A stretch of 46,706 nt of DNA, from IMG/VR virus record IMGVR_UViG_3300033153_004756, positions 1 to 46,706 of that record. The stretch is one strand, 5' to 3'. This document shows, in pieces, positions 2,887 to 45,429 of the stretch. The translations under genes and the position numbers were made by a program. The DNA comes from a virus. The notes under the pieces are model-generated. The model was given only the letters and a program-made list of their open reading frames with translations. It did not search any database and was not told the DNA's origin. The stretch's first letter is position 1; each line of letters opens with the position of its first letter.

Positions 2887-4371
2887 CTATCGCTCAAACA
2901 CGCCTTGGATTTGAACGCCATGGATAGCACCCGCCCCAAGACCAACAAAGCTAAGACCATTGTATTGACGATTCTGTTTTTCACTAGCAGAAACATCCGC
3001 TACTGGAATAGTTATCGTCTTATACCCGTTTGGCAAGAATTCACCATCAACCGTAGTTCCCGGAGCAAGTAAGCCATTGCGAACTGCTTCATCCATAATC
3101 TTGATTAATTGCTGTTCTAATGCCGCTACACCTTGATCAGTATATGGAACTTTAGTTGCACGAGACAACAAGTAACCATAAACTTCAATTTGGATAGCAT
3201 CCGTTAACCAATCCACGCCATGGATTTCATCAAAGAAGAAATCACTAGCCATGTATGATTCAGCGTAGATCTTAGTTTCACCTACTTCAAAGAATGCGTT
3301 ACCGCGCTTACTATCAAGCACCGCTTTCTCGTCGGTATTAAGTGTCTCAACAGTGATTCCAGGAAGTTGTTTGAACTTCAAAGTAAGTGTTGAATTCGGT
3401 TGACTGAATTGAACAGTAAATGCTCTACCTGCAATCGCTGCGCTTGGATATTCAGCGATTGTAGAACTGAATGTAGACATCGTACGAGTCATCGTCGCCG
3501 CATCTAAAAGGCTGACAATATCGGTAGTGGTAACACTATCAAGAACATCAAGATCATTCGATGTATTGAAAAAGGTCTTAACTCGCGCTTGTGTCCAAGC
3601 GGCAGCCGCCATAACAGCATCTTCAGTGTTAACAACTGCAAGATCACGAACTTCTTTAGTGAATATTAGTCCGTACCAATCGTCATTCTTTTGATTGATC
3701 GCATCTAACGCCTCAGTAATAGTTTCAGCATCAAGACCATTAGTTTTAGTGCCTTTACCTTGTTCCATTTCTAACAACGTACTGATGTCAGTTCCAGAAG
3801 CAGGTGCTACAGTTGTTAAGAATGAAATAATCGATGTTGCCCCGACTGTTCCTGAACGAATGAAGAAACGACCATCTTCGTAAGTGACTGTTGATGTTGG
3901 GAATGGTAATGTAACAATCGCTTGCAATGCTGTTTGAATAGTTGCGGCAACATCAGCCATATTGGTATCTGAACTAAAGTCCATTGCAATAATATCTTCA
4001 GCACCACCGTCAATTGATATAGCAAAACTACCATCAGTTATCGCTACGAACAATGCTAGGTTTGCCGCATTGTCTACAACAGAACCACCACGTAATTCTG
4101 CAGCAACATCATTCTCAGCTCTTAACGATACCGCAAAATCTGTTGGTTTTGGCTGTTGGCTAAAGTAGGCGTTTGCCAATTTAACTACTTCAGTTCCAGC
4201 CCAATCAGCCGCAACCCCATCTGCATCAGAATAATATCTGATACGTTCTGCGAACCCGATAACACCGAGTTCAGCCGTTACACAATTGAGAATCCCAAAT
4301 CCCTTGCGAGAAGGGAAAGTAGCCCCAATTGTGATACCGACGTTTACAATACTACTAACTGGAATAGTCAT
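2887..4371 (-). CDS. contractile tail sheath protein (DUF3383-like)
   Basis: A 494-aa ORF positioned before the tube gene. Its size and composition are typical of sheath proteins of small myoviruses. Confidence 0.65.
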   Translation of the reverse strand: MTIPVSSIVNVGITIGATFPSRKGFGILNCVTAELGVIGFAERIRYYSDADGVAADWAGTEVVKLANAYFSQQPKPTDFAVSLRAENDVAAELRGGSVVDNAANLALFVAITDGSFAISIDGGAEDIIAMDFSSDTNMADVAATIQTALQAIVTLPFPTSTVTYEDGRFFIRSGTVGATSIISFLTTVAPASGTDISTLLEMEQGKGTKTNGLDAETITEALDAINQKNDDWYGLIFTKEVRDLAVVNTEDAVMAAAAWTQARVKTFFNTSNDLDVLDSVTTTDIVSLLDAATMTRTMSTFSSTIAEYPSAAIAGRAFTVQFSQPNSTLTLKFKQLPGITVETLNTDEKAVLDSKRGNAFFEVGETKIYAESYMASDFFFDEIHGVDWLTDAIQIEVYGYLLSRATKVPYTDQGVAALEQQLIKIMDEAVRNGLLAPGTTVDGEFLPNGYKTITIPVADVSASEKQNRQYNGLSFVGLGAGAIHGVQIQGVFER

Positions 4372-25602: not shown

Positions 25603-25718
25603 ATCCTTAAGGTAGTGTCGGCGCATACGACGGCATGTGACGATCGGAAAGACGATTGACACCCCGGAAAGACGGGGAAACCAAGAGCGAAGAGAGAAAT
25701 AATTTAAGGGGAATAATC

Positions 25719-29913: not shown

Positions 29914-30098
29914 AGAACACCGAATTTATCGTCTATGCTATCATTGTTTCTCTTTCTATATCAGCATTAATTTTAAATCCTATAAAAAAGAATGATCAAC
30001 CGAAGTGCGGGGATTATGGATTTGAGACAGGCGATGTAACAGTTTTTGATAAAAAATCTAAAATTTTAAAAATCCAATGTGGAGAAAAGAAATGGTAG
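29910..30098 (+). CDS. small membrane protein with one TM segment
   Basis: A 62-aa product with the N-terminal hydrophobic segment FIVYAIIVSLSISALILNPI. Confidence 0.5.
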   Translation: MKNTEFIVYAIIVSLSISALILNPIKKNDQPKCGDYGFETGDVTVFDKKSKILKIQCGEKKW

Positions 30099-30640
30099 CC
30101 GGAAATACAACAAAATTAAGCGAACGGGATTTAGATTTTTATCCAACTGACCCGGCATGGGTTCATGTTCTATTGCGTCATGAAAAATTTGACGGCGAAA
30201 TAGATGAAACTTGTTGCGGTGATGGTGCTATATCTAAAGTATTAAAAGATCATGAATATAAAGTGAATTCATTTGATATTAAATGTTACGGGTATCCAAA
30301 GACTCATATCGAAGACACTTTACACAACGCTTACAGTCGTCCTAATGTGGTAACAAATCCACCTTATAATAAGGCTACTGAAATGATCAACCATTGGTTG
30401 CAGATTACAGAAGGCAAGGTGGCAGTGTTGATGAGATTGAGTTATATCGAAGGTGTGGAGCGATATGAACAATTCAAAGGAATTAGACCACATAAAATAA
30501 TTCTTGTTACGGATCGAATGAAACACAAAGATCGTAACACTGGTAAAATGGTATCGAGTCAATTTCCGCAAGCATGGCTGATCTGGGATAACAGCAAACC
30601 ACCAGTGGACGAATCAATTTTAATATGGGATAGAGTTTAG
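30092..30640 (+). CDS. small orphan DNA N6-adenine methyltransferase
   Basis: It carries motif IV, VVTNPPYNK, and a SAM-binding-like ETCCGDGAIS, with DFYPTDP near the N-terminus. The ATG at 30092 is preceded by GGAGAA. No restriction partner is nearby. Confidence 0.7.
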   Translation: MVAGNTTKLSERDLDFYPTDPAWVHVLLRHEKFDGEIDETCCGDGAISKVLKDHEYKVNSFDIKCYGYPKTHIEDTLHNAYSRPNVVTNPPYNKATEMINHWLQITEGKVAVLMRLSYIEGVERYEQFKGIRPHKIILVTDRMKHKDRNTGKMVSSQFPQAWLIWDNSKPPVDESILIWDRV

Positions 30641-30948: not shown

Positions 30949-31266
30949 ATGACAATGCCGATAGTATGGGTGATCCAAGAGGGTCGCAATGATTATGCCC
31001 CTGCGGAAGAATATGGTGAAGTGCGATTTGTAACCAAGGCCGATTTGACTAAATTCAATGATAGTCAACAGAATTTAGAAGTAACACATGATCTAAAAAA
31101 ATTTCTAACTCAATACGTGGTGGGAGTGGATTATATAATCCCTGCCGGAAACCCAATGTTGGTTGCTATGGCAACGATGTCTTTAACATCAGGGACACAA
31201 CATAATTTTCTCAAGTGGGATGGAAGACGAGCAATGTACATACCGTACACATTAAAATCAATATAA
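30949..31266 (+). CDS. hypothetical protein
   Basis: A 105-aa ORF that is the first gene after promoter P6. GTAGAGCG lies immediately before its ATG, as for the next gene. Confidence 0.55.
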   Translation: MTMPIVWVIQEGRNDYAPAEEYGEVRFVTKADLTKFNDSQQNLEVTHDLKKFLTQYVVGVDYIIPAGNPMLVAMATMSLTSGTQHNFLKWDGRRAMYIPYTLKSI

Positions 31267-31278
31267 GAGGGTAGAGCG

Positions 31279-31722
31279 ATGTCTAAAGAAATGTTTGATG
31301 CACTGCAAGAAGGATATGATAGAATGTCCATAGCCGAATTGGGCGCTTGTATCAAAGAATTAAAAGGCCAATTGGAAGAATTAGGCGCTGAAAAATCATC
31401 TATCCAAAAAATTTACGATTTTCTAACCATCACCGTTGTCCCAGAACGAATGGATGATGAGGGTCTTGAAGTGATTAAGATCAAAGATGTCGGTAGGTTG
31501 CAATTAGCATCTGACATAAGATGTGCTTGCCCTGCGGGAAATCGTGAAGACCTCTATAAATGGTTAACTGATCACGGTCATGCCGCAATGATTACTGATA
31601 CTGTCAATGCTAGTACTTTAAAAGCATTCGTAAAAGAACAAATGAAACAAGCCGATGGCGAATATCCGAAAGACTTGTTAAAAATCGACCCTTATAGCCG
31701 CGCCACAGTGGTTAAAGGGTAA
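31279..31722 (+). CDS. hypothetical protein (replication/recombination module)
   Basis: A 147-aa product with a coiled-coil N-terminus. Confidence 0.5.
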   Translation: MSKEMFDALQEGYDRMSIAELGACIKELKGQLEELGAEKSSIQKIYDFLTITVVPERMDDEGLEVIKIKDVGRLQLASDIRCACPAGNREDLYKWLTDHGHAAMITDTVNASTLKAFVKEQMKQADGEYPKDLLKIDPYSRATVVKG

Positions 31723-31863
31723 AGAATCGGCTTAACGGGGCGATACGATCTCAATCCCAGAGGCTCTATGCTGAGTGGGGAGAGAAATTAAAATCTGTTC
31801 AAGCGTCCGTCTTGTAAAACCGGACAAAATTAAACTTAAACTTTAAAGAAAGGAAATAGTCTC

Positions 31864-32583
31864 ATGACTAAAGCAAAGAAAGACGTAGCGACAACTGAAG
31901 ACCAATTACCAAGTTATATCAAGCAAGGTCAAAATCGCGGAAATGAAAACGTTGAAAGTGATGATTTGCAACTACCACGAATTGATGTTTTACAGGCATT
32001 ATCGCCACAGATCAACAAGAAAAAGGATGAATATATCGACGGCGCAGAAGTTGGAATGATTTTCAACACCCTAACCGGAGAACTCTATCCAGATGGAGTC
32101 AATTTTACACCAGTTAGTTTTGTAAAACGCCATTTAGTTTGGGTTGATCGTAAAATGGACAGTTCTGGTGGTCTTCGTGGTGTATTCGACACCGCAGAAG
32201 AAGCAGAAGCATTTATCACACAAGACGCAGACGAAGCGAAATTAGAAGCAGTGCCAACGGCAGAGCATTTAGTGTTGCTTGACAACGGTGATGAAGTTAT
32301 CCTTTCCATGGCTAAATCAAAAATGAAAGTTAGTCGTAAATTCAACAGTCTAGTTCGCCTTAATTCTGGTGATCGATTCAGTCGAAAGTACAAGTTATCT
32401 AGTATTGATGATGAGGGTGCGAAGGGCGAGTATCAAAATCTCAAAGTCGAAAATGATGGATTTCCTGTGGAAGAAGTTTATTTCAAAGCCGAGAAGTTAT
32501 ATGAAGCTATTCAAGGTGGAGCTAAACAGGCAGGTGGTAATTACGAAAGTGAAAAGTCCTCGGATGAATCAACAGGATATTAA
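31864..32583 (+). CDS. putative ssDNA-binding protein
   Basis: A 239-aa product positioned before the DNA polymerase. It has an acidic C-terminal tail (ESEKSSDESTGY), as in phage SSBs. No clear OB-fold motif was recognised by eye. Confidence 0.3.
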   Translation: MTKAKKDVATTEDQLPSYIKQGQNRGNENVESDDLQLPRIDVLQALSPQINKKKDEYIDGAEVGMIFNTLTGELYPDGVNFTPVSFVKRHLVWVDRKMDSSGGLRGVFDTAEEAEAFITQDADEAKLEAVPTAEHLVLLDNGDEVILSMAKSKMKVSRKFNSLVRLNSGDRFSRKYKLSSIDDEGAKGEYQNLKVENDGFPVEEVYFKAEKLYEAIQGGAKQAGGNYESEKSSDESTGY

Positions 32584-32641: not shown

Positions 32642-34492
32642 ATGAAAGATTTCCCAGATCTAACCAAGTTCGATGAAGTTGCGTATGATACTGAAACCAC
32701 CGGACTTAATCCCAATGCTGGGGCGCGGGTTTTTGGTTTTAGTTTAAGCACTCCCGATGGCAAAGATTATTATTATGATGTCCGTGAACAACCAGAAGCA
32801 GTGAAAATGTTCAATCGCCAAATGAAAGATTATGAGGGCGATACTATCTGTCACAACCTTTCATTTGATTACAGGATGTCTCAAGCAAGCGGCCTTAATT
32901 TTGATCTAGCTAGATCATCGGATACGGTTATTCAAGCCGGACTTATCAATGAACATGAACACGCCTATTCCCTCGATCATCTAGCAGGGAAATATACATC
33001 AGAATTTAAGAAGGGTGATCAACTTTATACAGATTTAGCGGCGATATTCGGCGGACGAGCTACCAAAAATGTCCAGATGAAAAATATATCCGACGCGCCC
33101 TCCGAGATAGTTGATCCTTATGCCAAGGCTGATACTAGGGCAACACTAGCATTGCATCAATTCCAAAAGAAGGAAATAACCAAACAAGGGCTAGAAAAGA
33201 TATTAACATTTGAACAATCGGTGACACCAGTTTTATTGGCGGCTGAAATGCATGGAGTTAGAGTCGATATTCCGGCGGCTGAAAAGGCGGTGGGCGAATT
33301 AAGTGGCGTAATCCGTCAAATGCAAAAAGAATTAAATGATGCGGCGGGATTTCCATGCAACGCGCAACCAAGTGGTGATATTAAAAAGTTATTCAAGCCG
33401 CAATGGAAAGATGGCCGATGGTGGGCTATTGATGGCACACCACTTGAAGAAACTAAATCCGGCAATGCCAGTGTTGGTGCTGACGCATTGCGCAAAATGT
33501 CCCATCCGGCGGCAAAAATAATTCTTGATCTAAGAAGTATGATTAAGACTCGTGATACCTTTTTAGTAGGTCACGTTTTAGAATCAGCCCAAAATGGCCG
33601 AGTTTATCCTAATATCAATCAAACTAAAGGTGATGATGGCGGTACGGGCACAGGTCGATTATCATACACAAGTCCCGCATTGCAACAAATACCAGATCGA
33701 AACAAACAAGTTGCCGAAATCGTAAAGCAAGTATTCTTACCAGATGAAGATCACAGTTGGGTAGACATGGATATGGCATCGTTTGAGGTACGTATCTTTG
33801 CACATTTAGTTGGCACACCTGATATAGTTGATGCTTATTTGCGCGATCCAGAACAGGATTTCCATCAATATGTAGCCGATTTAACAGGTCTAGTGAGAAA
33901 TGCAACTTATAACGGACAGCCGAACGCCAAACAATTAAATCTTTCCATGATTTTCAATCAAGGCAATGGTACGACAGCCGAAGAAATGGGTCTTCCTTGG
34001 TCTTGGGAATCATTCTACCCTAAAGGCAGTGGCAATATGATCACGTACAAGAAAGCAGGCGAAGAAGCGATGGGAGTAATAAACGCTTACCATAATCGCC
34101 TACCCGGTGTAAAAAGATTGGCCGATGGTTGTAAGAAAGTAGCTGAAGAAAGAGGTTATATCTTCACAAGAAGTGGTCGCCATTTGAGATTCCCACGTGG
34201 GTATCAATCCTACAAGGCATCAGGCATATTAATTCAAGCAACGGCGGCAGATGAAAATAAACGCAACTGGTTATTGATTGATGAAGCGATCCAAGGCACT
34301 GGTGCTAAAATGTTACTGAATACACATGATTCATACTCATTATCAATACCGAAAGGAGAAGAAGAAAAAGTATCAAAATTGATTAAGGAACGAATAGAAG
34401 AAGACCGGGGATTAAAAGTCCCTTTAATTTTAGAAGTAAACAGATCCGGCAAAAATTGGTGGGAAAGTAAAAAATCAGATAGATGGCTGTAA
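32642..34492 (+). CDS. family-A DNA polymerase with 3'-5' exonuclease domain (DpoZ candidate)
   Basis: Exo motifs are AYDTETTGL, HNLSFDY and YAKADTRATLAL. Pol motif A is DMDMASFEVRIFAHL, motif B is NAKQLNLSMIFNQG, and motif C is LLNTHDS. Confidence 0.85.
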   Translation: MKDFPDLTKFDEVAYDTETTGLNPNAGARVFGFSLSTPDGKDYYYDVREQPEAVKMFNRQMKDYEGDTICHNLSFDYRMSQASGLNFDLARSSDTVIQAGLINEHEHAYSLDHLAGKYTSEFKKGDQLYTDLAAIFGGRATKNVQMKNISDAPSEIVDPYAKADTRATLALHQFQKKEITKQGLEKILTFEQSVTPVLLAAEMHGVRVDIPAAEKAVGELSGVIRQMQKELNDAAGFPCNAQPSGDIKKLFKPQWKDGRWWAIDGTPLEETKSGNASVGADALRKMSHPAAKIILDLRSMIKTRDTFLVGHVLESAQNGRVYPNINQTKGDDGGTGTGRLSYTSPALQQIPDRNKQVAEIVKQVFLPDEDHSWVDMDMASFEVRIFAHLVGTPDIVDAYLRDPEQDFHQYVADLTGLVRNATYNGQPNAKQLNLSMIFNQGNGTTAEEMGLPWSWESFYPKGSGNMITYKKAGEEAMGVINAYHNRLPGVKRLADGCKKVAEERGYIFTRSGRHLRFPRGYQSYKASGILIQATAADENKRNWLLIDEAIQGTGAKMLLNTHDSYSLSIPKGEEEKVSKLIKERIEEDRGLKVPLILEVNRSGKNWWESKKSDRWL

Positions 34493-34514
34493 ATTAACCT
34501 AGAGGAAAATAAAA

Positions 34515-35228
34515 ATGATTAAAGTTTTAGATCACGGATTTATAAGACTTGTAGATTCAATGGGAGATGATCTTTCGATTGTTCGAAACGCTAGAGTATC
34601 TTATGATGCAGAATGGCGAGCGGGAGAAGATAAGGGCAGTGATGAACGGCTCATAAATTATCTTTATAATAACGGTCACAATACACCATTTGAGGCAGTC
34701 ACTTTAACATTTGATGTTAAAGCTCCTATATTCGTATTCAGACAATGGCATCGCCACCGTACACAATCGTTTAATGAATTAAGCGCTAGATATCGCGAAT
34801 TACCAGAAGAATTTTACATTCCTGAACCACATTTGATCGGTAAACAAAATAAAGATAATAAACAGATGCGTGATCCGATGACCAAAGAAGAGTTTGAAGC
34901 GTTGCCGCATGAAGAAAAATTTAACATTGAACAGTGGTTAATGCACATGGCGCATTGTAACAAAGATTCTTTCTCTCTGTACAAATCTATGATAAAGGGC
35001 GGAATGCCTCGCGAATTGGCTAGATCAGTTCTTCCAGTATCAACGTATAGTCATATGTTCGCTACGGTCAACCTTCATAATTTATTCAGATTTTTAGCGG
35101 AAAGACTTCACCCTCATGCACAATATGAAATTAAAGTTTATGCCGAAGCAATACTCGAATTGATTCGTCCAGTGGTTCCGGTAGCGGTTGCAGCATTCGA
35201 AAAACGATTTAACGAACAAGGTTGGTAA
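34515..35228 (+). CDS. thyX: FAD-dependent thymidylate synthase ThyX
   Basis: The ThyX signature RHRTQSFNELSARY (RHRxxSxxxxSxR) is present in a 237-aa product. Confidence 0.85.
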   Translation: MIKVLDHGFIRLVDSMGDDLSIVRNARVSYDAEWRAGEDKGSDERLINYLYNNGHNTPFEAVTLTFDVKAPIFVFRQWHRHRTQSFNELSARYRELPEEFYIPEPHLIGKQNKDNKQMRDPMTKEEFEALPHEEKFNIEQWLMHMAHCNKDSFSLYKSMIKGGMPRELARSVLPVSTYSHMFATVNLHNLFRFLAERLHPHAQYEIKVYAEAILELIRPVVPVAVAAFEKRFNEQGW

Positions 35229-36283
35229 TGAAAATGAAAGCATATATGATTTTAGATTTACAATTTGGCAGTACGGGTAAAGGTTCATTAGCGGGATATT
35301 TGGCCATTGAAAGAGAACCTGACACAGTAGTCACAGCATGGGCGCCCAATGCAGGACATACTTATATCGACGAAAATGGACGTGAATTTATTCACAGAAT
35401 GTTGGCTAATGGGATTGTATCACCGAAATTAAAGACAATTCTCATTGGCGCGGGATCGGTTGTTGATCCTCAATGCCTACATGATGAAATTTTCGCTTGT
35501 AAGGATTTGTTACAAGGCAAAAAGATAGTGATCCATCCACAAGCGGCAATCGTCTTGCCAGAGCATCTGAACATCGAAAAAGCCAATGTAAAAATAGGAA
35601 GCACTATGAAAGGTTCCGGTGCGGCTTTAATACAAAAAATTCAACGTGATCCAGACAATTGTAACAACGCTAGAATGGCATTCCCGCAAGATATCTGCAA
35701 TAAAATTCATGCAATGGGAGTAAACATTGTGATTTCAGCGGATGAATATCGCGTAGCAATCAAACAAGCGAAAGTTATGCAAATTGAAGGCGCACAAGGG
35801 TATAGCTTGTCGGTTCACCATGGTTTCTACCCTTATTGTACTAGTCGTGATGTTACTCCGGCACAAGTGATGGCAGATTGTTGTATTCCTTATTCAATTA
35901 AACCTGAAGTATATGGTACATTAAGAACTTTCCCGATCCGTGTTGCAAATCGTTATGATGAAAATGGAAAGTTGATTGGTACTAGTGGCTGTGGTTATGA
36001 TGATCAAGTTGAACTTGATTGGTCAAAAGTAGGTGTAGAGCCAGAATTAACAACAGTAACAAAATTACCGCGTCGCGTGTTCAGTTTTAGTCTGATGCAA
36101 ACGCAAGAAGCTTGTTTTCAATGTTCACCAGATTATTTATTCTTGAATTTCGCTAATTATATGCACGAAGACGATCTTGCAACATTGAAAACAAGGATAG
36201 AAGCCGCGACAGGAATTCCTGTCAGATGGTTAGGTTTTGGTGCAACACATAATGATGTAGTTGATTTAGGGGAAATATCATGA
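35228..36283 (+). CDS. purZ: PurZ-like N6-succino-2-amino-2'-deoxyadenylate synthase (truncated adenylosuccinate synthetase homologue)
   Basis: PurA-family motifs are NAGHT, IGSTMKGSG, EGAQGYSLSVHHGFYPYCTSR and TKLPRRV. The P-loop reads QFGSTGKGS rather than QWGDEGKGK. The product is 351 aa against about 430 aa for PurA. It is flanked by MazG-like and HD-domain genes. The ATG at 35228 overlaps the thyX stop (TAATG). Confidence 0.75.
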   Translation: MKMKAYMILDLQFGSTGKGSLAGYLAIEREPDTVVTAWAPNAGHTYIDENGREFIHRMLANGIVSPKLKTILIGAGSVVDPQCLHDEIFACKDLLQGKKIVIHPQAAIVLPEHLNIEKANVKIGSTMKGSGAALIQKIQRDPDNCNNARMAFPQDICNKIHAMGVNIVISADEYRVAIKQAKVMQIEGAQGYSLSVHHGFYPYCTSRDVTPAQVMADCCIPYSIKPEVYGTLRTFPIRVANRYDENGKLIGTSGCGYDDQVELDWSKVGVEPELTTVTKLPRRVFSFSLMQTQEACFQCSPDYLFLNFANYMHEDDLATLKTRIEAATGIPVRWLGFGATHNDVVDLGEIS

Positions 36284-37272
36284 GTCAATTAATAGCGTTT
36301 ACTGGAAAAGCAAGATCAGGCAAGGATGCATCGGCAGATGTTTTATGCGAAAATTACAGATTTGATCGAGCTTCATTTGCTAGAGCCATGAAAGATGGTA
36401 TCAAAGTTATGATCGGACTAGATGAAGAACAAGTAAATGGTGATTTGAAAGAAGAGCCTGTTGGATTTGGTAATTTAACGCCGCGAGACATCTTACAGAC
36501 TTTGGGAACGGAATGGGGCAGAGAAATGATCCACCCTGATATTTGGATAGTCAAAGTTGCCCAACAATGGGAAAAATTCAAGTTGCAGGGCAGGGATATG
36601 GTCATCACTGATCTTCGTTTTGAAAACGAAGCAGAATGGGTTAGATCTATAGGTGGCACAGTAGTCCATATCAAAGCTTCAAATTCAACAGAAATTAAAA
36701 ACAATGATCATATATCAGAATCCGGCATCGTTGTCCATTCTCGCGATAAAATAATTGTAAATGATAAGTCTGCAGGAATAAAATCATTGATAGGTAAAAT
36801 AGATTGGCTGATCAGATCCATTAAAAATCTCCACAAGAATGAATCCGTGAGTATCCGGGAAGATCTAGAAGAACCAACATCAACAATTTTATCCTTACAA
36901 CATTTAATTACTTCATGGGCTGACGAAGTGATGCCACAAAGGACAATCACCAATGCCTTGACTAAATTGGTGATGGAAGAAATTCCAGAATATTTAACGT
37001 CTCAACATGATCCTATGGAACTGGCCGATTGTGCTATTTTAATTTATGATATCGCACACTTGGCCGGGATTGATCTAGAGAAAGCCATGCGTGATAAAAT
37101 GGAAATCAATAAAAATCGAACTTGGGCTATCGACGATGAAACTGGCTTATTAAATCACGTGGAAAAAAGTGTTGATGAGTCAAAACATAAGTGTTGTGAA
37201 GGTAAGGATGCTCCTCATTGCGAATGCCATGCATCGCCAAATTACTTTAAAGAACGTGGAGAAATCGGGTGA
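36280..37272 (+). CDS. fusion protein: N-terminal dNMP kinase-like P-loop domain plus C-terminal MazG/DUF550-like nucleotide pyrophosphohydrolase (MazZ candidate)
   Basis: The N-terminus has the P-loop FTGKARSGKDASAD followed by LGTEWGRE, as in phage dNMP kinases. The C-terminal region KLVMEEIPEY...MELADCAILIYDIAHLAGIDLEKAMRDKMEINKNRTW is a typical MazG-like helix pair. It has a Cys/His-rich tail. Confidence 0.65.
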   Translation: MSQLIAFTGKARSGKDASADVLCENYRFDRASFARAMKDGIKVMIGLDEEQVNGDLKEEPVGFGNLTPRDILQTLGTEWGREMIHPDIWIVKVAQQWEKFKLQGRDMVITDLRFENEAEWVRSIGGTVVHIKASNSTEIKNNDHISESGIVVHSRDKIIVNDKSAGIKSLIGKIDWLIRSIKNLHKNESVSIREDLEEPTSTILSLQHLITSWADEVMPQRTITNALTKLVMEEIPEYLTSQHDPMELADCAILIYDIAHLAGIDLEKAMRDKMEINKNRTWAIDDETGLLNHVEKSVDESKHKCCEGKDAPHCECHASPNYFKERGEIG

Positions 37273-37790
37273 TCTTAGATTTCAGTTTCCAACAGATGAT
37301 GAGATTATCAAACATCAAAAGGTGGGGTATCGTCGAGATGTCTCGCCCTCAATCAGTGGCTGAACATTCATATAATGTGGCAATTATCGCAAGCGCTATT
37401 TGCGATAGAATTGATCTCAGCCCAGAGTATAAAAACGCGGTGGTGAATTGGGCATTGACACATGACTTGCCCGAAGTTGTTACAGGTGATGTTCCTTCAC
37501 CTTTGAAACGATTTAGTCCAATTACTTTTAATGATTTAGAAAGTGAAATGTTCCCCTTATACAGAGCATCGAAAGAGAAACATCAGGGTATGGCGGCGAT
37601 GATAGTTAAGGTAGCGGATTATATAGATGCAATCCAGTTTGCGCAAAAATTTTGTGTTGATACTCGCAAAGATGGAATTATATCTGAGATGATAGCTTAT
37701 CTTGATAACGCCATTAAAGTAACCGAAGATGCTCTAGGCAAATATAATCAATTGGTAGATGACTCATGGCTAAACGTGAAAATAGACTAA
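37269..37790 (+). CDS. datZ: HD-domain nucleotide hydrolase (DatZ-like dATP triphosphohydrolase candidate)
   Basis: A 173-aa product with H..HD..D metal ligands visible (VAEHSYNV, LTHDLPEVVTGD). The GTG start at 37269 has GGAGAA 6 nt upstream. Size and context match the published DatZ. Confidence 0.65.
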   Translation: MILDFSFQQMMRLSNIKRWGIVEMSRPQSVAEHSYNVAIIASAICDRIDLSPEYKNAVVNWALTHDLPEVVTGDVPSPLKRFSPITFNDLESEMFPLYRASKEKHQGMAAMIVKVADYIDAIQFAQKFCVDTRKDGIISEMIAYLDNAIKVTEDALGKYNQLVDDSWLNVKID

Positions 37791-38191
37791 AAAATTATCT
37801 ACTTGAAATGATGGGAACGGTATGGGATGCCCAATCACACGAAGATCGCTTTTCGTTGGGCATCCCTGACCTTTCTTATGGCGTGGCGGGAGTAAATGGA
37901 TGGATCGAACTTAAACAAGTGGAAAAATATCCAAAGAAGTCTTCTACGCCTATAGATCTCAAACATTTCACCCCTAGTCAGGTCAATTGGTTGCGCAAAA
38001 GGGGTAAAAGAGCGGGATCATGCTTCATCTTGATTCAAATAACTACTGAATATTATATTTTTTCCTTTCACAAAGCTCGTCTTTTACGGGCTGGCATGAC
38101 CAAGGAAAAAATGGAAGAACAATGTATTCAGAAGTGGGAAAATGGTATACCGAGGATTCAATTATTAAACGTCTTAATAGGAGATATGTAA
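37766..38191 (+). CDS. VRR-NUC / PD-(D/E)xK nuclease-like protein
   Basis: The motif GIPDLSYGVAGVNGWIELK (D...ExK) is present in a 141-aa product. The start is uncertain (alternative ATG at 37808). Confidence 0.5.
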   Translation: MAKRENRLKNYLLEMMGTVWDAQSHEDRFSLGIPDLSYGVAGVNGWIELKQVEKYPKKSSTPIDLKHFTPSQVNWLRKRGKRAGSCFILIQITTEYYIFSFHKARLLRAGMTKEKMEEQCIQKWENGIPRIQLLNVLIGDM

Positions 38192-38498: not shown

Positions 38499-38536
38499 GT
38501 AAAGAATCGGGAAAGGTTAACGTGAGGATATGGAAG

Positions 38537-38566
38537 AGAAGCCCTTTTTCGGGGCTTCTTATTATT
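38537..38566. terminator. bidirectional terminator hairpin at the convergence of the two arms
   Basis: The sequence is agaagccc-tttttcg-gggcttct. A T-rich tract follows on the + strand. It lies between the ends of 38191..38466 (+) and 38562..38966 (-). Confidence 0.6.
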
Positions 38567-39310: not shown

Positions 39311-39700
39311 CTAGTCTATTAATTCAACATGAGGCATGTCTTTGAAGTTTTTCCAAAGACCTCCCCATCTCAATTTATACCCTAATATAGAAGCGGCCTG
39401 TAAAAATGCAGTCGCCACCATAGCTAGATGTAATTTATCCCAACTAGCCTTTCCTTTAACATAGGCATAAAAATCTAAAGCTTTACCATGTTGATGGTTA
39501 CTAATTTTCACATAACCGTCGCACTGAGACATCCCATCGGCATAAAGATCACTTTGTTGCTTGGCGGTTCTTTTCCCTGCTAATTTAGGATGTCCAAAAT
39601 CTATTGCGGTCAATGTGATAGCTAGATCGCTAATTTTAATTAATCTTGGATCAGCACCTTTACGTCTTTCCTTAGACCTTTCGCTTAACTGATAACTCAT
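39311..39700 (-). CDS. endolysin, peptidase M15 (L-alanyl-D-glutamate peptidase / VanY-like)
   Basis: A 129-aa product with a Zn-ligand pattern (SNHQHGKALDFYAY) and the overall M15 layout seen in T5-type endolysins. Confidence 0.7.
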   Translation of the reverse strand: MSYQLSERSKERRKGADPRLIKISDLAITLTAIDFGHPKLAGKRTAKQQSDLYADGMSQCDGYVKISNHQHGKALDFYAYVKGKASWDKLHLAMVATAFLQAASILGYKLRWGGLWKNFKDMPHVELID

Positions 39701-40161
39701 AATTTAATACCCAATTGTATGCGAATTTTATCATCCGCATTCATATAGTTTTGTAATATAAAGTGATCCAACGCATCAGTCATTAATTGGTCGGTGACTT
39801 CAATCAAACCGTCTTTGGCTACAGGGTCTTTAGCGCGCTCAAAGAAGTACAAAGCTTCATCATCTTCAGCCTTACTACCCTGTGGATAAGCCGCTCTATA
39901 TACTTTGGAATATGGTTGTTGTTCGAACAATACTTTAAGTTCCCCAAAGGTGACACGAGTTCGATATTCCCCTAGATCTACAAATGGTGTTAACGGTAAC
40001 AATCCTGAATATTCACCTATTAAATACTCAATACCGTTTTCTTTTATTAATTCAACGTTTCTAAACAATTGATTATTTTCACCATCATGCAATGGGTCGA
40101 TCGCTTGGTAGTTAATCCCTCTTGAATTAGGGAAAAATTGAGCTTCTTCTTTAAATTTCAT
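39697..40161 (-). CDS. hypothetical protein
   Basis: A 154-aa ORF between the fibre-like genes and the endolysin. It has no TM segment. Confidence 0.5.
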   Translation of the reverse strand: MKFKEEAQFFPNSRGINYQAIDPLHDGENNQLFRNVELIKENGIEYLIGEYSGLLPLTPFVDLGEYRTRVTFGELKVLFEQQPYSKVYRAAYPQGSKAEDDEALYFFERAKDPVAKDGLIEVTDQLMTDALDHFILQNYMNADDKIRIQLGIKL

Positions 40162-40162
40162 A

Positions 40163-41125
40163 TTATGTTTTCTCCGCTAAACCTAAGTAAGTACACATAT
40201 CATGCAACCATTCGTCAAATTCCGCAATTTCCCACTGGCGAACGCCGACAACGGGCGAACCGGATGAAAAATTAGTAGCACTGGCCGTAGCAGTGAGTAA
40301 GATCCCACCATCCCATTCGATAAATTTCATTAATCCCCAAAAATTACTTCCTGCCGCATGACCCAACAAATTAGGCATTGTTTGTTGCATATTAATAACA
40401 CCCGCTGCATTTTTCCTTTGTATAGATAGTCCGTTAAATACTGATTCACCACCGCCAAGGTCGTATACTGTCCCGCTACCGATCATCACCCTACCGTCAC
40501 GAGAAATATAAGCTCCATTAAGTTCTGGTGTATCTGTCCCACCTACAAGATTAAAGTCTGCAGTCGTCGATTGCACCGTACCATCAGATGAGCTAATGAC
40601 TGTTCTATCATCTGATGAACCTATTGAAATTGTGAAATCTCCACTCCCCTGAGTAGCCCTAACCCAATGGGATTGAGCACCTGACTTAGGTGGTGGTGCA
40701 TTGTTAGTCCAGTTTGCGATGGTATCACTACCAACCAGAACTATAGTACCTGTTTTTGAAATGGTGATTAAATAAACGCTATTGGCTGTGGTGTCGTCGA
40801 CCACTAAGCAATAAAACAATAAATCAACATTATCATACCAATACAAACCCGCCCAATAAGTCAAAGTTAGCGTTTCTTGTGTGTTAATATCAGATAAACT
40901 TACCGAGAACACTGAACCTGTAGAATCAACCAATTGACAAGTATTTGATGTGTTAGTGCTTTGAGTTGGTGTTCTGAATAATGTATTACCATTACTGAAA
41001 CTGAACATAGGCAAGTGCATGGCGTTAGACAAATGTCCGTTGGAGCCAATTTTTGCAGGCGGCATTTGTGGTTGACCAAAACCACCACCCCCACCACCTA
41101 AAAAGAAATCTGTTGCTACACTCAT
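40163..41125 (-). CDS. putative receptor-binding / distal tail fibre protein
   Basis: A 320-aa product with a Gly-run N-terminus, rich in Ser/Thr/Gly. It is positioned after the fibre-anchor gene. Confidence 0.4.
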   Translation of the reverse strand: MSVATDFFLGGGGGGFGQPQMPPAKIGSNGHLSNAMHLPMFSFSNGNTLFRTPTQSTNTSNTCQLVDSTGSVFSVSLSDINTQETLTLTYWAGLYWYDNVDLLFYCLVVDDTTANSVYLITISKTGTIVLVGSDTIANWTNNAPPPKSGAQSHWVRATQGSGDFTISIGSSDDRTVISSSDGTVQSTTADFNLVGGTDTPELNGAYISRDGRVMIGSGTVYDLGGGESVFNGLSIQRKNAAGVINMQQTMPNLLGHAAGSNFWGLMKFIEWDGGILLTATASATNFSSGSPVVGVRQWEIAEFDEWLHDMCTYLGLAEKT

Positions 41126-41613: not shown

Positions 41614-41625
41614 CGTATTAATCCT

Positions 41626-42246
41626 CTATGAAAATGTACCCTCGTCATCAGCGTAGATAACTCCTACTCCTGCTGGACGTGGGGCATATGGTGTTCTTGC
41701 AAGTAATAATTTATCAGTGTCACTTAACAATCCCGGAAAAGTTAATTTAAAGTTAGCCATAGTTTCAGATACTGTTACGGTTGCAGCACTAGTCACGCCT
41801 TGTAGCACAACATCAATCACTTCATTAATAGTAACTCTTGTTTTATTCTTGGAGATCTTAGACCGTATAAATATTCTATAAGTAGCATCGTCAAATACGA
41901 CATCTATAAATTCAACATCAGAAGTAGACCTGAAGTTAGAACCTATATTAGTATCCCCACTTGTACCAAATGTATCCGCACCGATCGCTCCAATAAATCC
42001 AAAGAACGTGTCTGCGACTGTTTGGCTAAACCCTCTGTCCTGACCGACAATATCCCCTATAACATCTAAGTTAACACCCACAGCAGTATCTATCCACCGC
42101 ATAGAACAGATGTTTTGAAACACTTGCTCAAGGTCGTCATTTTCACGCAACAATAATTTGATATAATTAATAAGATTAGGTGACTCTTTAAACTGAGTAA
42201 CCAATCTAGATTCAGCTAAAGCCCTGTGATCAATTTGGTCTATCAT
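41626..42246 (-). CDS. baseplate protein (DUF2612-like)
   Basis: The N-terminus RLVTQFKESPNLINYIKLLL...IDTAVGVNLDVIGDIVG resembles DUF2612. It follows the baseplate J-like gene. Confidence 0.55.
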   Translation of the reverse strand: MIDQIDHRALAESRLVTQFKESPNLINYIKLLLRENDDLEQVFQNICSMRWIDTAVGVNLDVIGDIVGQDRGFSQTVADTFFGFIGAIGADTFGTSGDTNIGSNFRSTSDVEFIDVVFDDATYRIFIRSKISKNKTRVTINEVIDVVLQGVTSAATVTVSETMANFKLTFPGLLSDTDKLLLARTPYAPRPAGVGVIYADDEGTFS

Positions 42247-43427
42247 ACTGGAGTCTCATTAATAATTATGTTACCGATTACAAAATCAGACACTTCATCA
42301 AAATCAATTGTTATATTATTTTCCAATGTAGGGGTCGGCGTAATGCCAATTAAAATACTATTAATGGAATGACCTATAACATTATTAACAGGTGTATTTA
42401 ATTCAGATTGAATTATGTCATCGTTGACACCAAAACCTCTTCCGCTAACTAATAATCCATCAGCATAGTCAACAATATTTTGCTTTATAGTATCGCCGCC
42501 ATCAGCAGGGAAATTATTAAATGTGTTGATGTTTACGATGATATATATAGATATTGTCGCAGGTCTAGTGAATCCGATATCATGAGGTATCAATTGTGAA
42601 TCGTCCACTGCTACAATAGTTGTGCCATAGGCTTCAATCCCTACAGGTTTTTCATCAAATATTGCGGTGGCTATTGTGGCATCTGATCCACCAAGTACCA
42701 CGACTTGAAACGCCTTTCCCGGAGTGTTATTATTGATATTCGTGGATAATGTTGTATTCTCATAAACGAATGCTTCTACAACATTATCCACTGCCAACAC
42801 TTCAGCTAATATTGTTTCCAATATGCCTTTAGCCGCTTTAGAAACTGACAATTCTCGTCTAGCTCTGAGTTCTGTGTCGGTTTCTTCAGCGCTACCCTCT
42901 ATTGCATCCGCTGCATTGATCACAGAATCCCATCCTGTGATAGGTGTATCTATTATAGTGATTGTACTTGCAACAGCCGGGACAGCGCCCACACTGGTAG
43001 CAGTGACACTAACATCGATAAACCCTGCGACAGGAATAGTCACCAAAACATCTGTTGTGAACGTAACACTCTTATCTATTGTACTAATTGAACTACCGAG
43101 TGGGATATTAGTACCGTTTGTTCCAGTTATAGTTACCGTAGCAGTTGTCGCAACAGCAATTTGTCGGGTGATACCGTTTATCTGTACTAAGTTAGATAAT
43201 GCATTGCCAGTTGCCGCAGAAGGATTGAACGCATTGTAATCTCCCTCAGCTATTTCCCATAAATCCGCTTGTGATCCTGATATTAGCCCTATGATTTGGC
43301 CATCAGGTGATTCAGGTGTGACATTGAGATTATCGCCAAATACTGTTTTAAAATCAGCAGTTGTATCTGCTATAATCTCATCCAATCTTTTTCGTTGGAA
43401 TCCAGTTGCGCTTATACCATTAGACAT
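42243..43427 (-). CDS. baseplate J-like wedge protein
   Basis: A 394-aa ORF in the expected position, with N-terminus GFQRKRLDEIIADTTADFKTVFGDNLNVTPESPDGQ typical of the Baseplate_J family. Confidence 0.6.
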   Translation of the reverse strand: MSNGISATGFQRKRLDEIIADTTADFKTVFGDNLNVTPESPDGQIIGLISGSQADLWEIAEGDYNAFNPSAATGNALSNLVQINGITRQIAVATTATVTITGTNGTNIPLGSSISTIDKSVTFTTDVLVTIPVAGFIDVSVTATSVGAVPAVASTITIIDTPITGWDSVINAADAIEGSAEETDTELRARRELSVSKAAKGILETILAEVLAVDNVVEAFVYENTTLSTNINNNTPGKAFQVVVLGGSDATIATAIFDEKPVGIEAYGTTIVAVDDSQLIPHDIGFTRPATISIYIIVNINTFNNFPADGGDTIKQNIVDYADGLLVSGRGFGVNDDIIQSELNTPVNNVIGHSINSILIGITPTPTLENNITIDFDEVSDFVIGNIIINETPV

Positions 43428-43785
43428 TTAAAAATACCTCTTCACTGTTTATAGTGCCAAAAGTTGTTTCTGCTGAAAACGACACTTGTAATTTTCTATC
43501 TGCGGGATTAGGCAGAGACATAGAAAATTCCGTAATCTGATCCAGTTCTGGCGTATTCGCAATTCTAGATTTTATAATAGTTTCCACCGCTCCAATATTA
43601 AATGGCTTAATAAAAACTTCCTGAAACCAAGGTGTCCCTGCTCTATTATCAGCAAACCACTCCCCCAAATAAAATAGTAATCTAGTTCTAACATGTTGTG
43701 TCACTTGACCGCCTTCTTTAATAGTGGTAAAAGACCCATTGCGGATGAATATATCATTATTACTGTCTAATGCTCGTTCTATCAT
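43420..43785 (-). CDS. small baseplate wedge protein (gp25/W-like slot)
   Basis: A 121-aa ORF between the spike and baseplate J-like genes. Confidence 0.45.
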   Translation of the reverse strand: MIERALDSNNDIFIRNGSFTTIKEGGQVTQHVRTRLLFYLGEWFADNRAGTPWFQEVFIKPFNIGAVETIIKSRIANTPELDQITEFSMSLPNPADRKLQVSFSAETTFGTINSEEVFLNV

Positions 43786-44540
43786 AGTGGTGGACTCGTG
43801 TTTGGTGTCCCGTGTGCATGAAGATGTGTATCACTAATATCCTTGTTGTTAGAAGTAACTATATCGCTAAGTGTAGTATCGCCTAATACATCTAAATCAA
43901 CATCTATGTTGATACTTCCATCAACCTGTAAATCGCCCGTTAACGTTGTTAGCGGTGTATCAATATTAACTGCCACTGGTGCAACCATATTAATAATCTC
44001 ACTAGCGTTTAACATATTAATTTCAACTGTACCTGTAACAACCTTTATATCTTTGTTAGGCTTCATTGTAAAAGTTTGATCATGCTCTTCGTTTCTTATT
44101 TGAAAATTAGCAGGATCAAAATCCGTGATAACTTTGGGTTGAGAAGACATACCCACAAGACATATCGCATCTGATAGACTGTGCATTCTCATGTCATGCG
44201 GCGATTGATTACCGCTAAATTTAATCCATCTATCTAATGATCGTTCTGCAAATAAAACTAAACATTCATCGTTTTTAGCGATAGGAAATGTTATATTAAA
44301 ACCTCCTGCTCTAGGGAACCAAACAGGAACATTTACTAGTAAAGGCAAAGGTTGGCTCTCTCCATTGATAAATGACCTAGTAATCACTATTTGCACTTCA
44401 GCTAATTGTGTTTCAGGATCAAAAGAAACAATCTCTCCGGGAAGGCATGTATGGACATCCTTCATATAGTTTTTGATGCCCTGTTGAATCACTCCCGCAA
44501 GGCCACCATCACTTATGTTATTAAGTCTATCATCAGCCAT
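43782..44540 (-). CDS. baseplate central spike protein (Gp138-N / gpV-like)
   Basis: The N-terminus CLPGEIVSFDPETQLAEVQIV resembles the Gp138 N-terminal OB domain. A repetitive beta-helix follows, and the C-terminus ends with the HLHAH metal-binding-like tip. Confidence 0.6.
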   Translation of the reverse strand: MADDRLNNISDGGLAGVIQQGIKNYMKDVHTCLPGEIVSFDPETQLAEVQIVITRSFINGESQPLPLLVNVPVWFPRAGGFNITFPIAKNDECLVLFAERSLDRWIKFSGNQSPHDMRMHSLSDAICLVGMSSQPKVITDFDPANFQIRNEEHDQTFTMKPNKDIKVVTGTVEINMLNASEIINMVAPVAVNIDTPLTTLTGDLQVDGSINIDVDLDVLGDTTLSDIVTSNNKDISDTHLHAHGTPNTSPPL

Positions 44541-45429
44541 TTGGGATTATAGTTCCTCTCGCTGTGGAATACCAATTGTTGCCATGGGTATCCCCGTTAA
44601 AAATCACCTCAAACGCTCGGTAAATGCCCTCAGCGGTTGTTCTTCTTAATGATCTAAACTGTAAATTAGTCAATGCGATAGTCGTACTAACAGATTCAAT
44701 CTTGAACGCGATGTTAGGCAATAAATCAGGGTTCAGTAATGTGGTAACGTCTGCGCCTATTTCAGTTAAGGTTGGTGAACCGATCATACCTGTGTTTTGA
44801 TTTATTAATACTGCTTCTGTGAATTCAATCGGCGCGTCTGCATCCATAACAACAATTTCATTATCTTGAATACTCCATATAAGTCCATAGTCATCCGCTA
44901 TTTTATCCATAACATCTTTAGTGGAACCACTAAGGCTAACCCCCATCAATTTATCAGCCTCTCTATCTTCCATATCCTGTAATGTACCGAGTGTTAATTC
45001 ACCTGATTCTAAAAAGGTTGAAACGATATCGGTCACTAATTCTTTCAGTTTGAAATTACTAGAATAGGTTTTATTGATAATGGTGTTTTCCCATTCACGT
45101 TGACCGTCCCCCGCATACAAAGTTAAAATTCTATCTTCGGAAATACGATTAACAAATGAATTTCTTAAACGACCTTTAAATATTAACCCCATATTACCAT
45201 CGTAACCCGCGTTTAAGATAACAATAGGATTGTCATTATCTACTAGGGCTATTGTGTCACCATTAGGATTGAATACATCTATCTTAGCTAAGTTAGGATA
45301 ACTTCTTAAAGATTTGCTGACCTCAAACACAATTCGTAAATCTGTGATAGCCTTAATATTTTCTTCACCTAATAAGATTAATTCATATTTCCTTTTAAAT
45401 TGTTTAGCCACTAACTGGAACCTCTGCAA
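44533..45429 (-). CDS. baseplate hub protein (gpD / XkdQ-like)
   Basis: A 298-aa ORF upstream of the spike gene. The start is uncertain: the TTG at 45429 overlaps the upstream gene by 26 nt, and an alternative GTG lies at 45411. Confidence 0.45.
   Translation of the reverse strand: MQRFQLVAKQFKRKYELILLGEENIKAITDLRIVFEVSKSLRSYPNLAKIDVFNPNGDTIALVDNDNPIVILNAGYDGNMGLIFKGRLRNSFVNRISEDRILTLYAGDGQREWENTIINKTYSSNFKLKELVTDIVSTFLESGELTLGTLQDMEDREADKLMGVSLSGSTKDVMDKIADDYGLIWSIQDNEIVVMDADAPIEFTEAVLINQNTGMIGSPTLTEIGADVTTLLNPDLLPNIAFKIESVSTTIALTNLQFRSLRRTTAEGIYRAFEVIFNGDTHGNNWYSTARGTIIPNG

Follow-up and report, generated by a model that had tools for sequence, protein, structure and literature searches.

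The window analysed here is the whole 46,706-nucleotide stretch of IMG/VR virus record IMGVR_UViG_3300033153_004756 (positions 1 to 46,706). Its positions 32642-37790 hold five open reading frames (ORFs), all on the + strand, that encode a family-A DNA polymerase (PolA), the thymidylate synthase ThyX, PurZ, a fusion of a deoxynucleoside monophosphate (dNMP) kinase to MazZ, and DatZ. This block is very probably the complete Z cluster plus polymerase operon of a virulent-type myovirus, which would replace adenine with 2-aminoadenine (Z) and so give the phage ZTGC DNA. The system is a known one: its chemistry has been described since 2021, the diversity of PurZ has been surveyed, and the window leaves the chemistry unchanged. 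Its new features are above all the dNMP-kinase::MazZ fusion and, in addition, a thyX gene within the operon, while the contractile tail is a weaker novelty. The five ORFs had been called in the initial annotation; each was confirmed, as was every motif quoted from the translations, and the identification of the set as PurZ, MazZ, DatZ and DpoZ holds, with curated models, solved structures, specificity residues, phylogeny and gene order in agreement. The features of the block are as follows.

32642..34492, + strand: DpoZ, family-A polymerase with 3'-5' exonuclease, 616 amino acids, assigned to the phiVC8-like aminoadenine-selective subfamily (NF038380, 7PBK)
34515..35228, + strand: ThyX, flavin-dependent thymidylate synthase, 237 amino acids, between dpoZ and purZ (TIGR02170)
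35228..36283, + strand: PurZ, predicted succino-amino-deoxyadenylate synthase (NF038379; PDB 6FM1 and 7ODX; residues; phylogeny)
36280..37272, + strand: fusion protein, 330 amino acids, two domains
36280..36843, + strand: T4-type dNMP kinase domain, fusion residues 1-188 (Pfam DNMK PF21448; 1DEK)
36844..36888, + strand: linker between kinase and MazZ, fusion residues 189-203, with a predicted local distance difference test (pLDDT) below 50 in AlphaFold2 and a length and sequence that vary in 23 fusions
36889..37167, + strand: MazZ-1 domain (DUF550, MazG-like), predicted dGTP/dATP pyrophosphohydrolase, fusion residues 204-296 (PF04447; 7ODY)
37168..37272, + strand: Cys/His-rich C-terminal tail, fusion residues 297-330, sequence KHKCCEGKDAPHCECH, low model confidence
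37269..37790, + strand: DatZ-like HD-domain protein, predicted dATP triphosphohydrolase, 173 amino acids, GTG start (phrog_7076; 6ZPA)

The genes are tightly packed. A 22-nucleotide spacer with GAGGAAA, resembling a ribosome-binding site, precedes thyX, the thyX stop overlaps the purZ start by 1 nucleotide (TAATG), and both the purZ/fusion junction (ATGA) and the fusion/datZ junction (GTGA) are 4-nucleotide overlaps. On account of these overlapping junctions the five genes look like one translationally coupled unit, in which the mazZ-bearing gene sits between purZ and datZ. For the four Z proteins, specificity determinants were taken from the literature and mapped by alignment; all of the published residues tested are kept in PurZ, MazZ, DatZ and DpoZ.

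The 351-amino-acid product of purZ, counted from an ATG (an alternative TTG at 35222 would give 353), had been described as a homologue of adenylosuccinate synthetase (PurA) in which the catalytic Asp is replaced, and its translation contains the motifs QFGSTGKGS, NAGHT, IGSTMKGSG, EGAQGYSLSVHHGFYPYCTSR and TKLPRRV. Profile searches place it with PurZ rather than PurA. It scores 341.1 bits with the NCBIfam PurZ model NF038379 (cut-off 300), while all PurA models remain below their cut-offs (129 against 368, 106 against 395 and 89 against 402). Pfam Adenylsucc_synt matches at 1e-28 and the PHROGs family phrog_1211, '2-aminooxy adenylosuccinate synthetase', at 1e-84; in the PDB, the PurZ structures 6FM1 (2.6e-83) and 7ODX (2.7e-74) compare with 1.8e-27 for the best PurA. 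Residues F13, S15, T275, F308 and Y311 correspond to F12, S14, T262, F295 and Y298 of the PurZ of Vibrio phage phiVC8. The catalytic Asp of PurA is indeed replaced, by S15 here and S14 in phiVC8, and the E. coli PurA residues aligned with S15, F13 and T275 are D, W and G. The donor pocket F308/Y311 is likewise kept, where the Wayne PurZ0 has a gap and V and E. coli PurA has K and V. An ATP/dATP donor pocket of the F295/Y298 type separates PurZ from the GTP-using PurZ0 and PurA, and these two residues of phiVC8 PurZ stabilise the adenine of ATP (bioRxiv 2025.10.22.683976). Further differentially conserved positions from the same study are also in the PurZ state. In a purely distance-based neighbour-joining tree (14 sequences, 500 bootstraps), the PurZ clade that includes the window protein separates from PurZ0 and PurA with 99% bootstrap support. 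We conclude that the protein is a PurZ, predicted to convert dGMP, aspartate and ATP or dATP to succino-2-amino-deoxyadenylate (dSMP).

The polymerase scores 833.6 bits with NCBIfam NF038380, phage_DpoZ_1 (cut-off 500); all PolA equivalog models fail, and the DpoZ_2 (Wayne-like) model reaches 33.8 bits against a cut-off of 350. Pfam recognises DNA_pol_A (2e-45) and exonuclease (3e-13) domains. The top PDB match is phiVC8 DpoZ (7PBK, 5e-200, against 4.5e-37 for Klenow), to which the protein is 52.9% identical. Polymerases of the phiVC8-like DpoZ group carry three clade-specific insertions within palm and fingers, together with L455, G548 and, on helix E2, R161 (K) and M165 (I/A) (PMC8599892). 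In the window enzyme insertion 1 reads GDDGG and insertion 3 PWSWESFYPKGSGNMITYKK, insertion 2 being judged by sequence conservation alone, while L434/G528 are equivalent to L455/G548 and K142/M146 to R161/M165; the helix-O loop RNATYNGQPN is conserved between the two proteins. The alignment shows that an exonuclease insertion of phiVC8 DpoZ (117-127) is absent from the window enzyme. It is equally absent from the DpoZ of Acinetobacter phage SH-Ab 15497, which has been shown to be Z-selective (PMC8599892), and the insertion is therefore specific to phiVC8 rather than clade-defining.

The C-terminal half of the fusion protein had been taken as MazG/DUF550-like, and this is borne out by Pfam PF04447 (dATP-dGTP_PPHyd, DUF550; 32 bits, cut-off 23; 1.5e-7), by a match of the protein to the PHROGs dATP/dGTP pyrophosphohydrolase family phrog_801, and by the structure of cyanophage S-2L MazZ (PDB 7ODY), which is matched both in sequence (3e-14) and in fold (Foldseek on an AlphaFold2 model; TM score 0.79, root-mean-square deviation 2.1 Å, 40% identity). 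S-2L MazZ uses E35, E38, E50 and D53 as metal ligands, I56 and D60 as guanine determinants and R83 for the transition state (PMC8342488). In the window protein the metal ligands E233/E234/E237/E247/D250, the guanine determinants I253/D257 and R280 are all kept. The HD-domain protein downstream contains the motif AEHS...THDLPEVVTGD, with the H...HD...D pattern, and is matched by Pfam YfbR-like HD (PF12917; 70.8 bits against 25.9; 1.5e-19) and by the dATP triphosphohydrolase family phrog_7076 (1.8e-27), with S-2L DatZ (6ZPA, 6e-10) as its top PDB match. Its W19 and I21, in the motif RWGIV, correspond to the S-2L selectivity residues W20 (for deoxyribose) and I22 (for adenine); in an enrichment study, this W20-I22 pair was seen solely in contigs with dZ (bioRxiv 2025.10.22.683976).

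The N-terminal half of the fusion protein is where the window departs from the known systems. It matches Pfam DNMK (PF21448) at 79.9 bits (cut-off 27.1; 3e-22) and PDB 1DEK in sequence (4e-10), and 1DEK is also the top fold match of the domain (9e-9, Foldseek). An AlphaFold2 model of the whole protein, made with 23 homologues, has a mean pLDDT of 86 and consists of two confident domains joined by a disordered linker; its top two Foldseek matches are 1DEK and 7ODY. The kinase P-loop reads GKARSGKD, with G9, G14 and K15 invariant in the 23 fusions. Across these sequences there is little or no variation in the P-loop, D-x-R and H-x-S-E motifs or in any MazZ catalytic residue (E234, E237, E247, D250, D257 and R280 are the same in 23 of 23, I253 in at least 90%), which argues that both halves are under purifying selection. 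The Cys/His-rich tail could be a small appendage that binds metal; the homologues P0006 and P0027 have Cys-rich tails like it, and most of the fusions do not.

The same architecture recurs in about 25 proteins of a 5.8-billion-protein collection, at 38-55% identity, mostly on contigs of 40-50 kb, and the proteins come from differing samples and sources (Logan, ENA, NCBI, JGI). All ten contigs that were inspected have purZ directly upstream of the fusion and an HD gene downstream; a DpoZ-type polymerase lies upstream in nine of them, the tenth being cut there, and contractile-tail baseplate genes are found within the 10-kb flank in five. The PurZ proteins of fusion-bearing genomes (seven in the tree) form a clade with 98% bootstrap support, into which the window protein falls. 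These observations indicate that the fusion is genuine, long established and linked to the Z cluster, and that it marks a clade of about 25 metagenomic phages. An artefact of assembly or gene calling, such as the loss of a stop codon between two adjacent genes, would be suggested by the origin of the window from a single metagenomic contig and by the disordered, poorly conserved linker. However, it would have to account for some 25 independent two-domain proteins of such divergence, with variable linkers and an intact reading frame, for the ten homologues' contigs that were inspected, and for the lack of a separate MazZ gene elsewhere in this cluster, and we regard it as vanishingly improbable.

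The fusion had been put forward as new, and it remains so in the collections searched. A tblastn search of 50,697 GenBank phage records returned no match covering at least 80% of the protein, and the best 80 loci of an IMG/VR scan with the fusion alignment were all kinase-only. Three papers on Z-phages (PMC12884076, PMC8342488 and PMC13128860) mention no kinase partner under 'kinase', only a host GMP kinase in one of them. No paper connecting PurZ with 'monophosphate kinase' was found in the literature searched, which lay outside the 2021 Science papers (Zhou, Sleiman, Pezo). A kinase partner of MazZ thus appears to be undescribed so far, while the general principle is known: MazZ-1 often bears N-terminal fusions (PMC8342488), a fusion of MazZ-1 to DUF5664 has been described (PMC12884076), and we find DUF5664 (PF18909) N-terminal to MazZ-1 in SH-Ab 15497, Kokobel2 and PSA28.

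The second departure is ThyX, which is assigned by the equivalog model TIGR02170 (182.4 bits, cut-off 87.9), by Pfam Thy1 (8e-50) and by the motif RHRTQS at residue 80 (pattern RHRxxS). Its insertion into the cluster had also been considered new. This is correct for its position, since thyX lies between dpoZ and purZ in the window alone among 11 genomes of the clade, but not for the gene itself, which is common both in phages and in this clade. Of the 10 related contigs, 5 contain Thy1, in each case flanked by the gp33-like and gp34-like genes (described below), which with the window makes 6 of 11 genomes of the clade. The window ThyX is 39-40% identical to the ThyX of three clade members (L007, L013 and L014), which are 62-70% identical to one another, and it is 67-75% identical to the ThyX of non-Z phages (MW202455 and Vibrio phage VpaJT_1). 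Being closer to the latter than to its counterparts in the clade, it indicates that thyX entered the fusion clade at least twice. When the window is taken together with the first six contigs, 4 of 7 genomes have thyX, compared with 3.8% of phage records (naive binomial P 7e-5). The repeated capture is suggestive of selection, though the events are few and the genomes related; a link of thyX to Z is plausible. Three of the Thy1-domain proteins in clade relatives (L013:3942-5429, L100:3164-4795 and L014:4657-5601) are 314-543 amino acids long, up to twice the normal ThyX length, which suggests extra domains or a tandem ThyX, and in L103 a 508-amino-acid protein with no Pfam match occupies the same position.

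From family membership and intact catalytic and specificity residues, both of which are directly visible in the comparisons above, we infer the activities of these proteins in the Z pathway. The MazZ domain would hydrolyse dGTP, and possibly dATP, to the monophosphate and thereby supply dGMP, which PurZ would join to aspartate, using ATP or dATP, to give dSMP. Host PurB would then release the Z monophosphate, dZMP (the window ORFs screened include no purB), and host guanylate kinase and nucleoside diphosphate kinase (NDK) would raise it to dZTP. DatZ would destroy dATP, and DpoZ, through its proofreading exonuclease, would keep Z rather than A opposite T. To this scheme the present lineage adds two elements, the kinase fused to MazZ and the thyX of the operon. 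The kinase and ThyX would push dUMP to dTMP and on to dTDP, supplying the pairing partner of Z, and some of the dGMP that MazZ makes could pass back into the dGTP pool through the kinase. Being fused, the pool-draining and pool-refilling activities would necessarily be co-expressed at equal dose.

Several observations weigh against Z-DNA in this phage. The base present in the virion cannot be read from sequence, so that the case rests on homology. DatZ is divergent, at 21-25% identity to the characterised enzymes of S-2L, phiVC8 and SH-Ab 15497, and the HMMER alignment of DatZ to 6ZPA spans residues 9-82, its N-terminal half only. The polymerase proves nothing by itself, as a DpoZ-related enzyme occurs in phage phiJL001, which has no Z genes and has ATGC DNA (PMC8599892). 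ThyX is common enough in phages (1919 of 50,697 records) that its presence may be unrelated to Z. Finally, the window encodes a methyltransferase with an NPPY motif that, if adenine-specific, would be left without its canonical target in a fully Z-substituted genome. The phage might therefore carry the cluster and yet have canonical or only partly substituted DNA, with the genes serving to remodel the deoxynucleoside triphosphate (dNTP) pool or to salvage purines, or with one component inactive. Against this, all four components are intact, every tested catalytic and specificity residue is kept, and the genes appear translationally coupled. According to PMC8342488, PMC8599892 and PMC12884076, the same set gives complete replacement in phiVC8, SH-Ab 15497 and S-2L, and in E. 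coli the triad of purZ, mazZ and datZ is by itself enough to convert A to Z in the DNA (PMC8342488). Restriction-resistant contigs were the source of 28 of the 29 PurZ-clade proteins in the enrichment study, and the environmental PurZ clade and the W-x-I type of DatZ track such contigs almost perfectly (bioRxiv 2025.10.22.683976). Conservation across about 25 diverged genomes also points to purifying selection on the whole set. On balance we consider canonical or partly substituted DNA improbable, and replacement of adenine by Z remains the reading that we favour strongly.

The role of the fused kinase is less certain. T4 Dnk accepts dGMP, dTMP and hydroxymethyl-dCMP and rejects dAMP, which dZMP resembles at N1 and C6. 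Pocket residues of the T4 enzyme were taken from the residue table of PMC10653934, and their equivalents K38, R69, T77, D111, R113, E117, H144, E147 and N161 are kept in the window domain. They cover the phosphate binders K37 and R132 and the lid residues H206 and E209 of T4 Dnk, as well as its base contacts T140, D175, R177 and E181, which appear here as T77, D111, R113 and E117. Standalone T4-type kinases (T4 gp1, 1DEK; enzymes of about 185-190 amino acids from Pseudomonas and other phages; P. putida PP_1964) agree with the window domain in fold, in P-loop and in the residues that contact phosphate and base, the short forms being 35-40% identical to it, and one standalone short dNMP kinase replaces thymidylate kinase in vivo (PMC10653934). 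Unlike these unfused enzymes, the window kinase is joined to MazZ, in an arrangement found only inside Z clusters. The pocket residues are identical in the standalone kinases of non-Z phages, and mapping them revealed no re-tooling of the pocket for Z and no pocket residue specific to the fusion clade. Since the base pocket is unchanged relative to standalone phage enzymes, the fused kinase is probably an ordinary dTMP/dGMP-type kinase.

Two observations sit uneasily with an ordinary kinase. One is that joining a kinase that accepts dGMP to a dGTP pyrophosphohydrolase would seem to set up a futile cycle. The other concerns the arginine that contacts the ATP base in T4 Dnk (R197): it is conserved in six of six standalone phage kinases, near residue 133 of the window protein (36676-36678), whereas eight kinase::MazZ fusions have A, P, S, R, D, T, D and D there. 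This variability could reflect an altered phosphate donor or a misaligned loop, the alignment being uncertain at this point. The domain might instead be a dedicated dZMP kinase that takes the step from dZMP to dZDP over from host guanylate kinase and is coupled to the entry enzyme MazZ, in which case PurB and NDK would be the sole host enzymes still required. This would fit the restriction of the fusion to Z clusters (10 of 10 contigs and the window) and to a monophyletic, well-supported PurZ clade. It would also fill a real gap, as the published pathway leaves the kinase step to the host (PMC8342488; bioRxiv 2025.10.22.683976), and the lack of conservation of the ATP-base arginine in the fusions hints at a functional shift. 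However, the base-contacting residues are those of the non-Z enzymes, the pocket showed no residue peculiar to the fusion clade, and, given that T4 Dnk rejects dAMP, a pocket left as it was speaks against a change to Z. A dZMP kinase is thus a possibility that we hold doubtful, and the ordinary dTMP/dGMP-type kinase is preferred. A broader proposal, to which we give a similarly low weight, is that the fusion is a bifunctional 'gatekeeper', with the kinase acting on both dZMP and dTMP, MazZ supplying dGMP, and both captures of thyX reflecting selection for dTTP. If so, this myovirus clade would have internalised the kinase step that is left to host guanylate kinase in all characterised Z-phages, and a raised dTTP supply would serve a genome whose T residues all pair with Z. 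A kinase that accepts dZMP would also be a useful part for Z-DNA engineering in hosts where guanylate kinase is limiting. In either case the fusion bears on whether any Z-phage encodes its own dZMP kinase or just boosts dTTP.

Comparison with characterised Z-phages shows which parts of the cluster are shared. The siphovirus SH-Ab 15497 has the same order of PolA, PurZ, MazZ-1 and DatZ, in the arrangement DpoZ, small ORF, PurZ, DUF5664::DUF550 MazZ, DatZ, and it also shares with the window an upstream Pam3 gp34-like gene (42% identity). Its PurZ is 51% identical to that of the window, and its DpoZ belongs to the same phiVC8-like subfamily (42%). MazZ-1 bears an extra N-terminal domain in both phages, but the partner is DUF5664 (PF18909, a dNTP diphosphohydrolase) in SH-Ab 15497 and a dNMP kinase in the window. 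SH-Ab 15497 has no thyX in the 13-kb region inspected and instead has a 99-amino-acid ORF annotated as SSB between the polymerase and purZ; its tail is non-contractile, unlike that of the window phage. The podovirus phiVC8 (Enhodamvirus) provides the closest solved DpoZ (7PBK, 53% identity) and PurZ (6FM1, 48%); all PurZ specificity residues are identical in the two phages, and the DpoZ insertions and signature residues are common to both. It differs in having the MazZ-2 variant as a small standalone protein rather than a fused MazZ-1, a primase gene between the polymerase and purZ, the extra exonuclease insertion mentioned above, and L rather than I at the adenine-selecting position of DatZ, and neither a kinase nor thyX is present in the 13-kb region inspected.

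The siphovirus S-2L, with the order datZ-mazZ-purZ, shares MazZ-1 with the window, and the MazZ metal- and guanine-binding residues and the DatZ W20/I22 pair are kept between them; the PurZ proteins are 44.5% identical. S-2L lacks DpoZ, replicates with a non-selective PrimPol and has an unfused MazZ (PMC8342488), whereas the window has a PrimPol/VapE primase-helicase (22270-24729) in addition to DpoZ. This 819-amino-acid + strand protein means that the phage carries both of the enzyme types found in Z-phages.

Burkholderia phage Bm1 (PP183292.1, 67.5 kb; L018/L019 in our set), a relative of BCSR129, bears most directly on the contractile tail. Bm1 has sheath and baseplate genes and is a cultured myovirus by electron microscopy (PMC12003559), and its Z cluster lies at L018:13306-17238. 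With the window it shares the contractile tail, the PolA - PurZ - MazG-like - DatZ cluster and the upstream gp34-like gene, but its MazG-like protein is standalone (111 amino acids, with no kinase fusion), its cluster has no thyX and has a dUTPase upstream, and its genome exceeds that of the window phage in size and belongs to another structural lineage. The Bm1 paper (PMC12003559) mentions neither PurZ nor aminoadenine, though the cluster is annotated in GenBank, and we regard Bm1 as an overlooked candidate Z-DNA myovirus. Z-phages have been described as Siphoviridae or Podoviridae (PMC8342488, PMC8599892), and no paper linking PurZ to myoviruses was found in the literature searched. The initial annotation had held that a contractile-tail carrier would be new; the tail itself is well founded, with sheath and baseplate genes present, but the claim of novelty holds only in part, because Bm1 already carries the cluster in GenBank.

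Only in ZTGC genomes, among natural ones, does a base of different pairing strength take the place of a canonical base entirely, and the Z enzymes are in use for making Z-DNA in cells. Against this background, the window and Bm1 show that the Z module moves between all three tail types. The window also establishes a monophyletic group of about 25 metagenomic phages whose MazZ has a dNMP kinase as its fusion partner rather than DUF5664, and it shows that thyX has been recruited repeatedly into the same module.

The phage genome is a complete circular assembly of about 46.6 kb, as the ends of the window share an exact terminal direct repeat of 91 bp (1-91 and 46616-46706). It has a G+C content of 39%, and no tRNA genes were found in it. 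The + strand genes from about 20 kb to 38.5 kb form an early/replication block, and the - strand remainder a morphogenesis and lysis block. An open stretch of 586 codons, presumably the tape measure gene, spans the junction of the circular assembly and is hence missing from ORF lists. A megablast search of the 5.1-kb block against the 50,697 GenBank phages gave no match, and there is therefore no close cultured relative. The features outside the five-gene block are as follows.

2887..4371, - strand: tail sheath (phrog_205 at 5.9e-104)
30949..32583, + strand: Pam3 gp32-, gp33- and gp34-like genes (PF23992 at 1.7e-16; PF23984 at 5.6e-32; PF23977 at 4.3e-56)
37766..38191, + strand: small gene overlapping the end of datZ (phrog_2165 at 1.9e-29; weak RecU hit below cut-off)
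38536..38560, + strand: terminator-like hairpin, a 10-bp stem, 5 of its pairs G-C, and then a T-rich tail, where gene orientation flips
42243..45429, - strand: baseplate wedge (42243-43427; phrog_6, 2.9e-63) and hub (44533-45429; phrog_196, 1.7e-58), with genes between

Upstream of dpoZ lies a replication module with an SNF2 helicase and the Pam3 gp32-, gp33- and gp34-like genes. Known Z-phages belonging to the groups of SH-Ab 15497 and phiVC8 have the same module, with proteins about 40% identical (39-44% for the gp34-like protein). Of the 10 fusion-bearing contigs, 9 keep the gp32/33/34-like order upstream of dpoZ, and the remaining one, L015, is cut upstream of purZ. The small gene at 37766-38191 probably encodes a co-transcribed protein of the nuclease- or helicase-labelled kind. 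It was considered as an orthologue of the gene at the same position in phiVC8 and rejected for want of pairwise similarity (E 0.94), and it was left outside the Z cluster. The hairpin at 38536-38560 is the sole strong terminator-like hairpin in the region and closes the + strand replication/nucleotide block. A promoter scan was uninformative, with 23 sites against 24 expected by chance.

The structural module contains tail tube and chaperone genes in addition to the sheath and baseplate. Among sheaths, that of Vibrio phage vB_VpaM_VPs20 comes closest (Chaseviridae; 44% identity), followed by that of the uncultured Myoviridae sp. MW202455. These two nearest structural relatives were considered as possible Z-phages and set aside, as purZ is annotated in neither. 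The structural module thus differs in origin from the Z-type replication module, and the genome is a mosaic in which a Z-type replication/nucleotide module sits on a contractile-tail chassis of different origin. In MW202455.1 (L016), whose sheath is 39% and ThyX 67% identical to those of the window, positions 39541-43774 carry ThyX, a ThyA-like thymidylate synthase, a 'pyrimidine hmase synthase', an NTP-PPase-like protein and a thymidylate kinase, a set that resembles a pyrimidine-modification module on a similar chassis.

Three further regions of the window deserve mention. The methyltransferase with the NPPY motif (187 amino acids, 30077-30640, + strand) matches phrog_799 (E 3e-40) and has no Pfam match; the motif is typical of N6-adenine or N4-cytosine DNA methyltransferases, and possible targets here are Z, cytosine or host DNA. 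A 275-amino-acid pentapeptide-repeat protein in the early region (25656-26483, + strand; PF00805, E 2e-71) may act as a Qnr/MfpA-type DNA mimic or as an anti-defence protein. Between portal and terminase (12489-17122, - strand) lie three ORFs of 370, 541 and 534 amino acids that match no PHROG or Pfam family, and such large unmatched ORFs are unusual in a packaging/head module.

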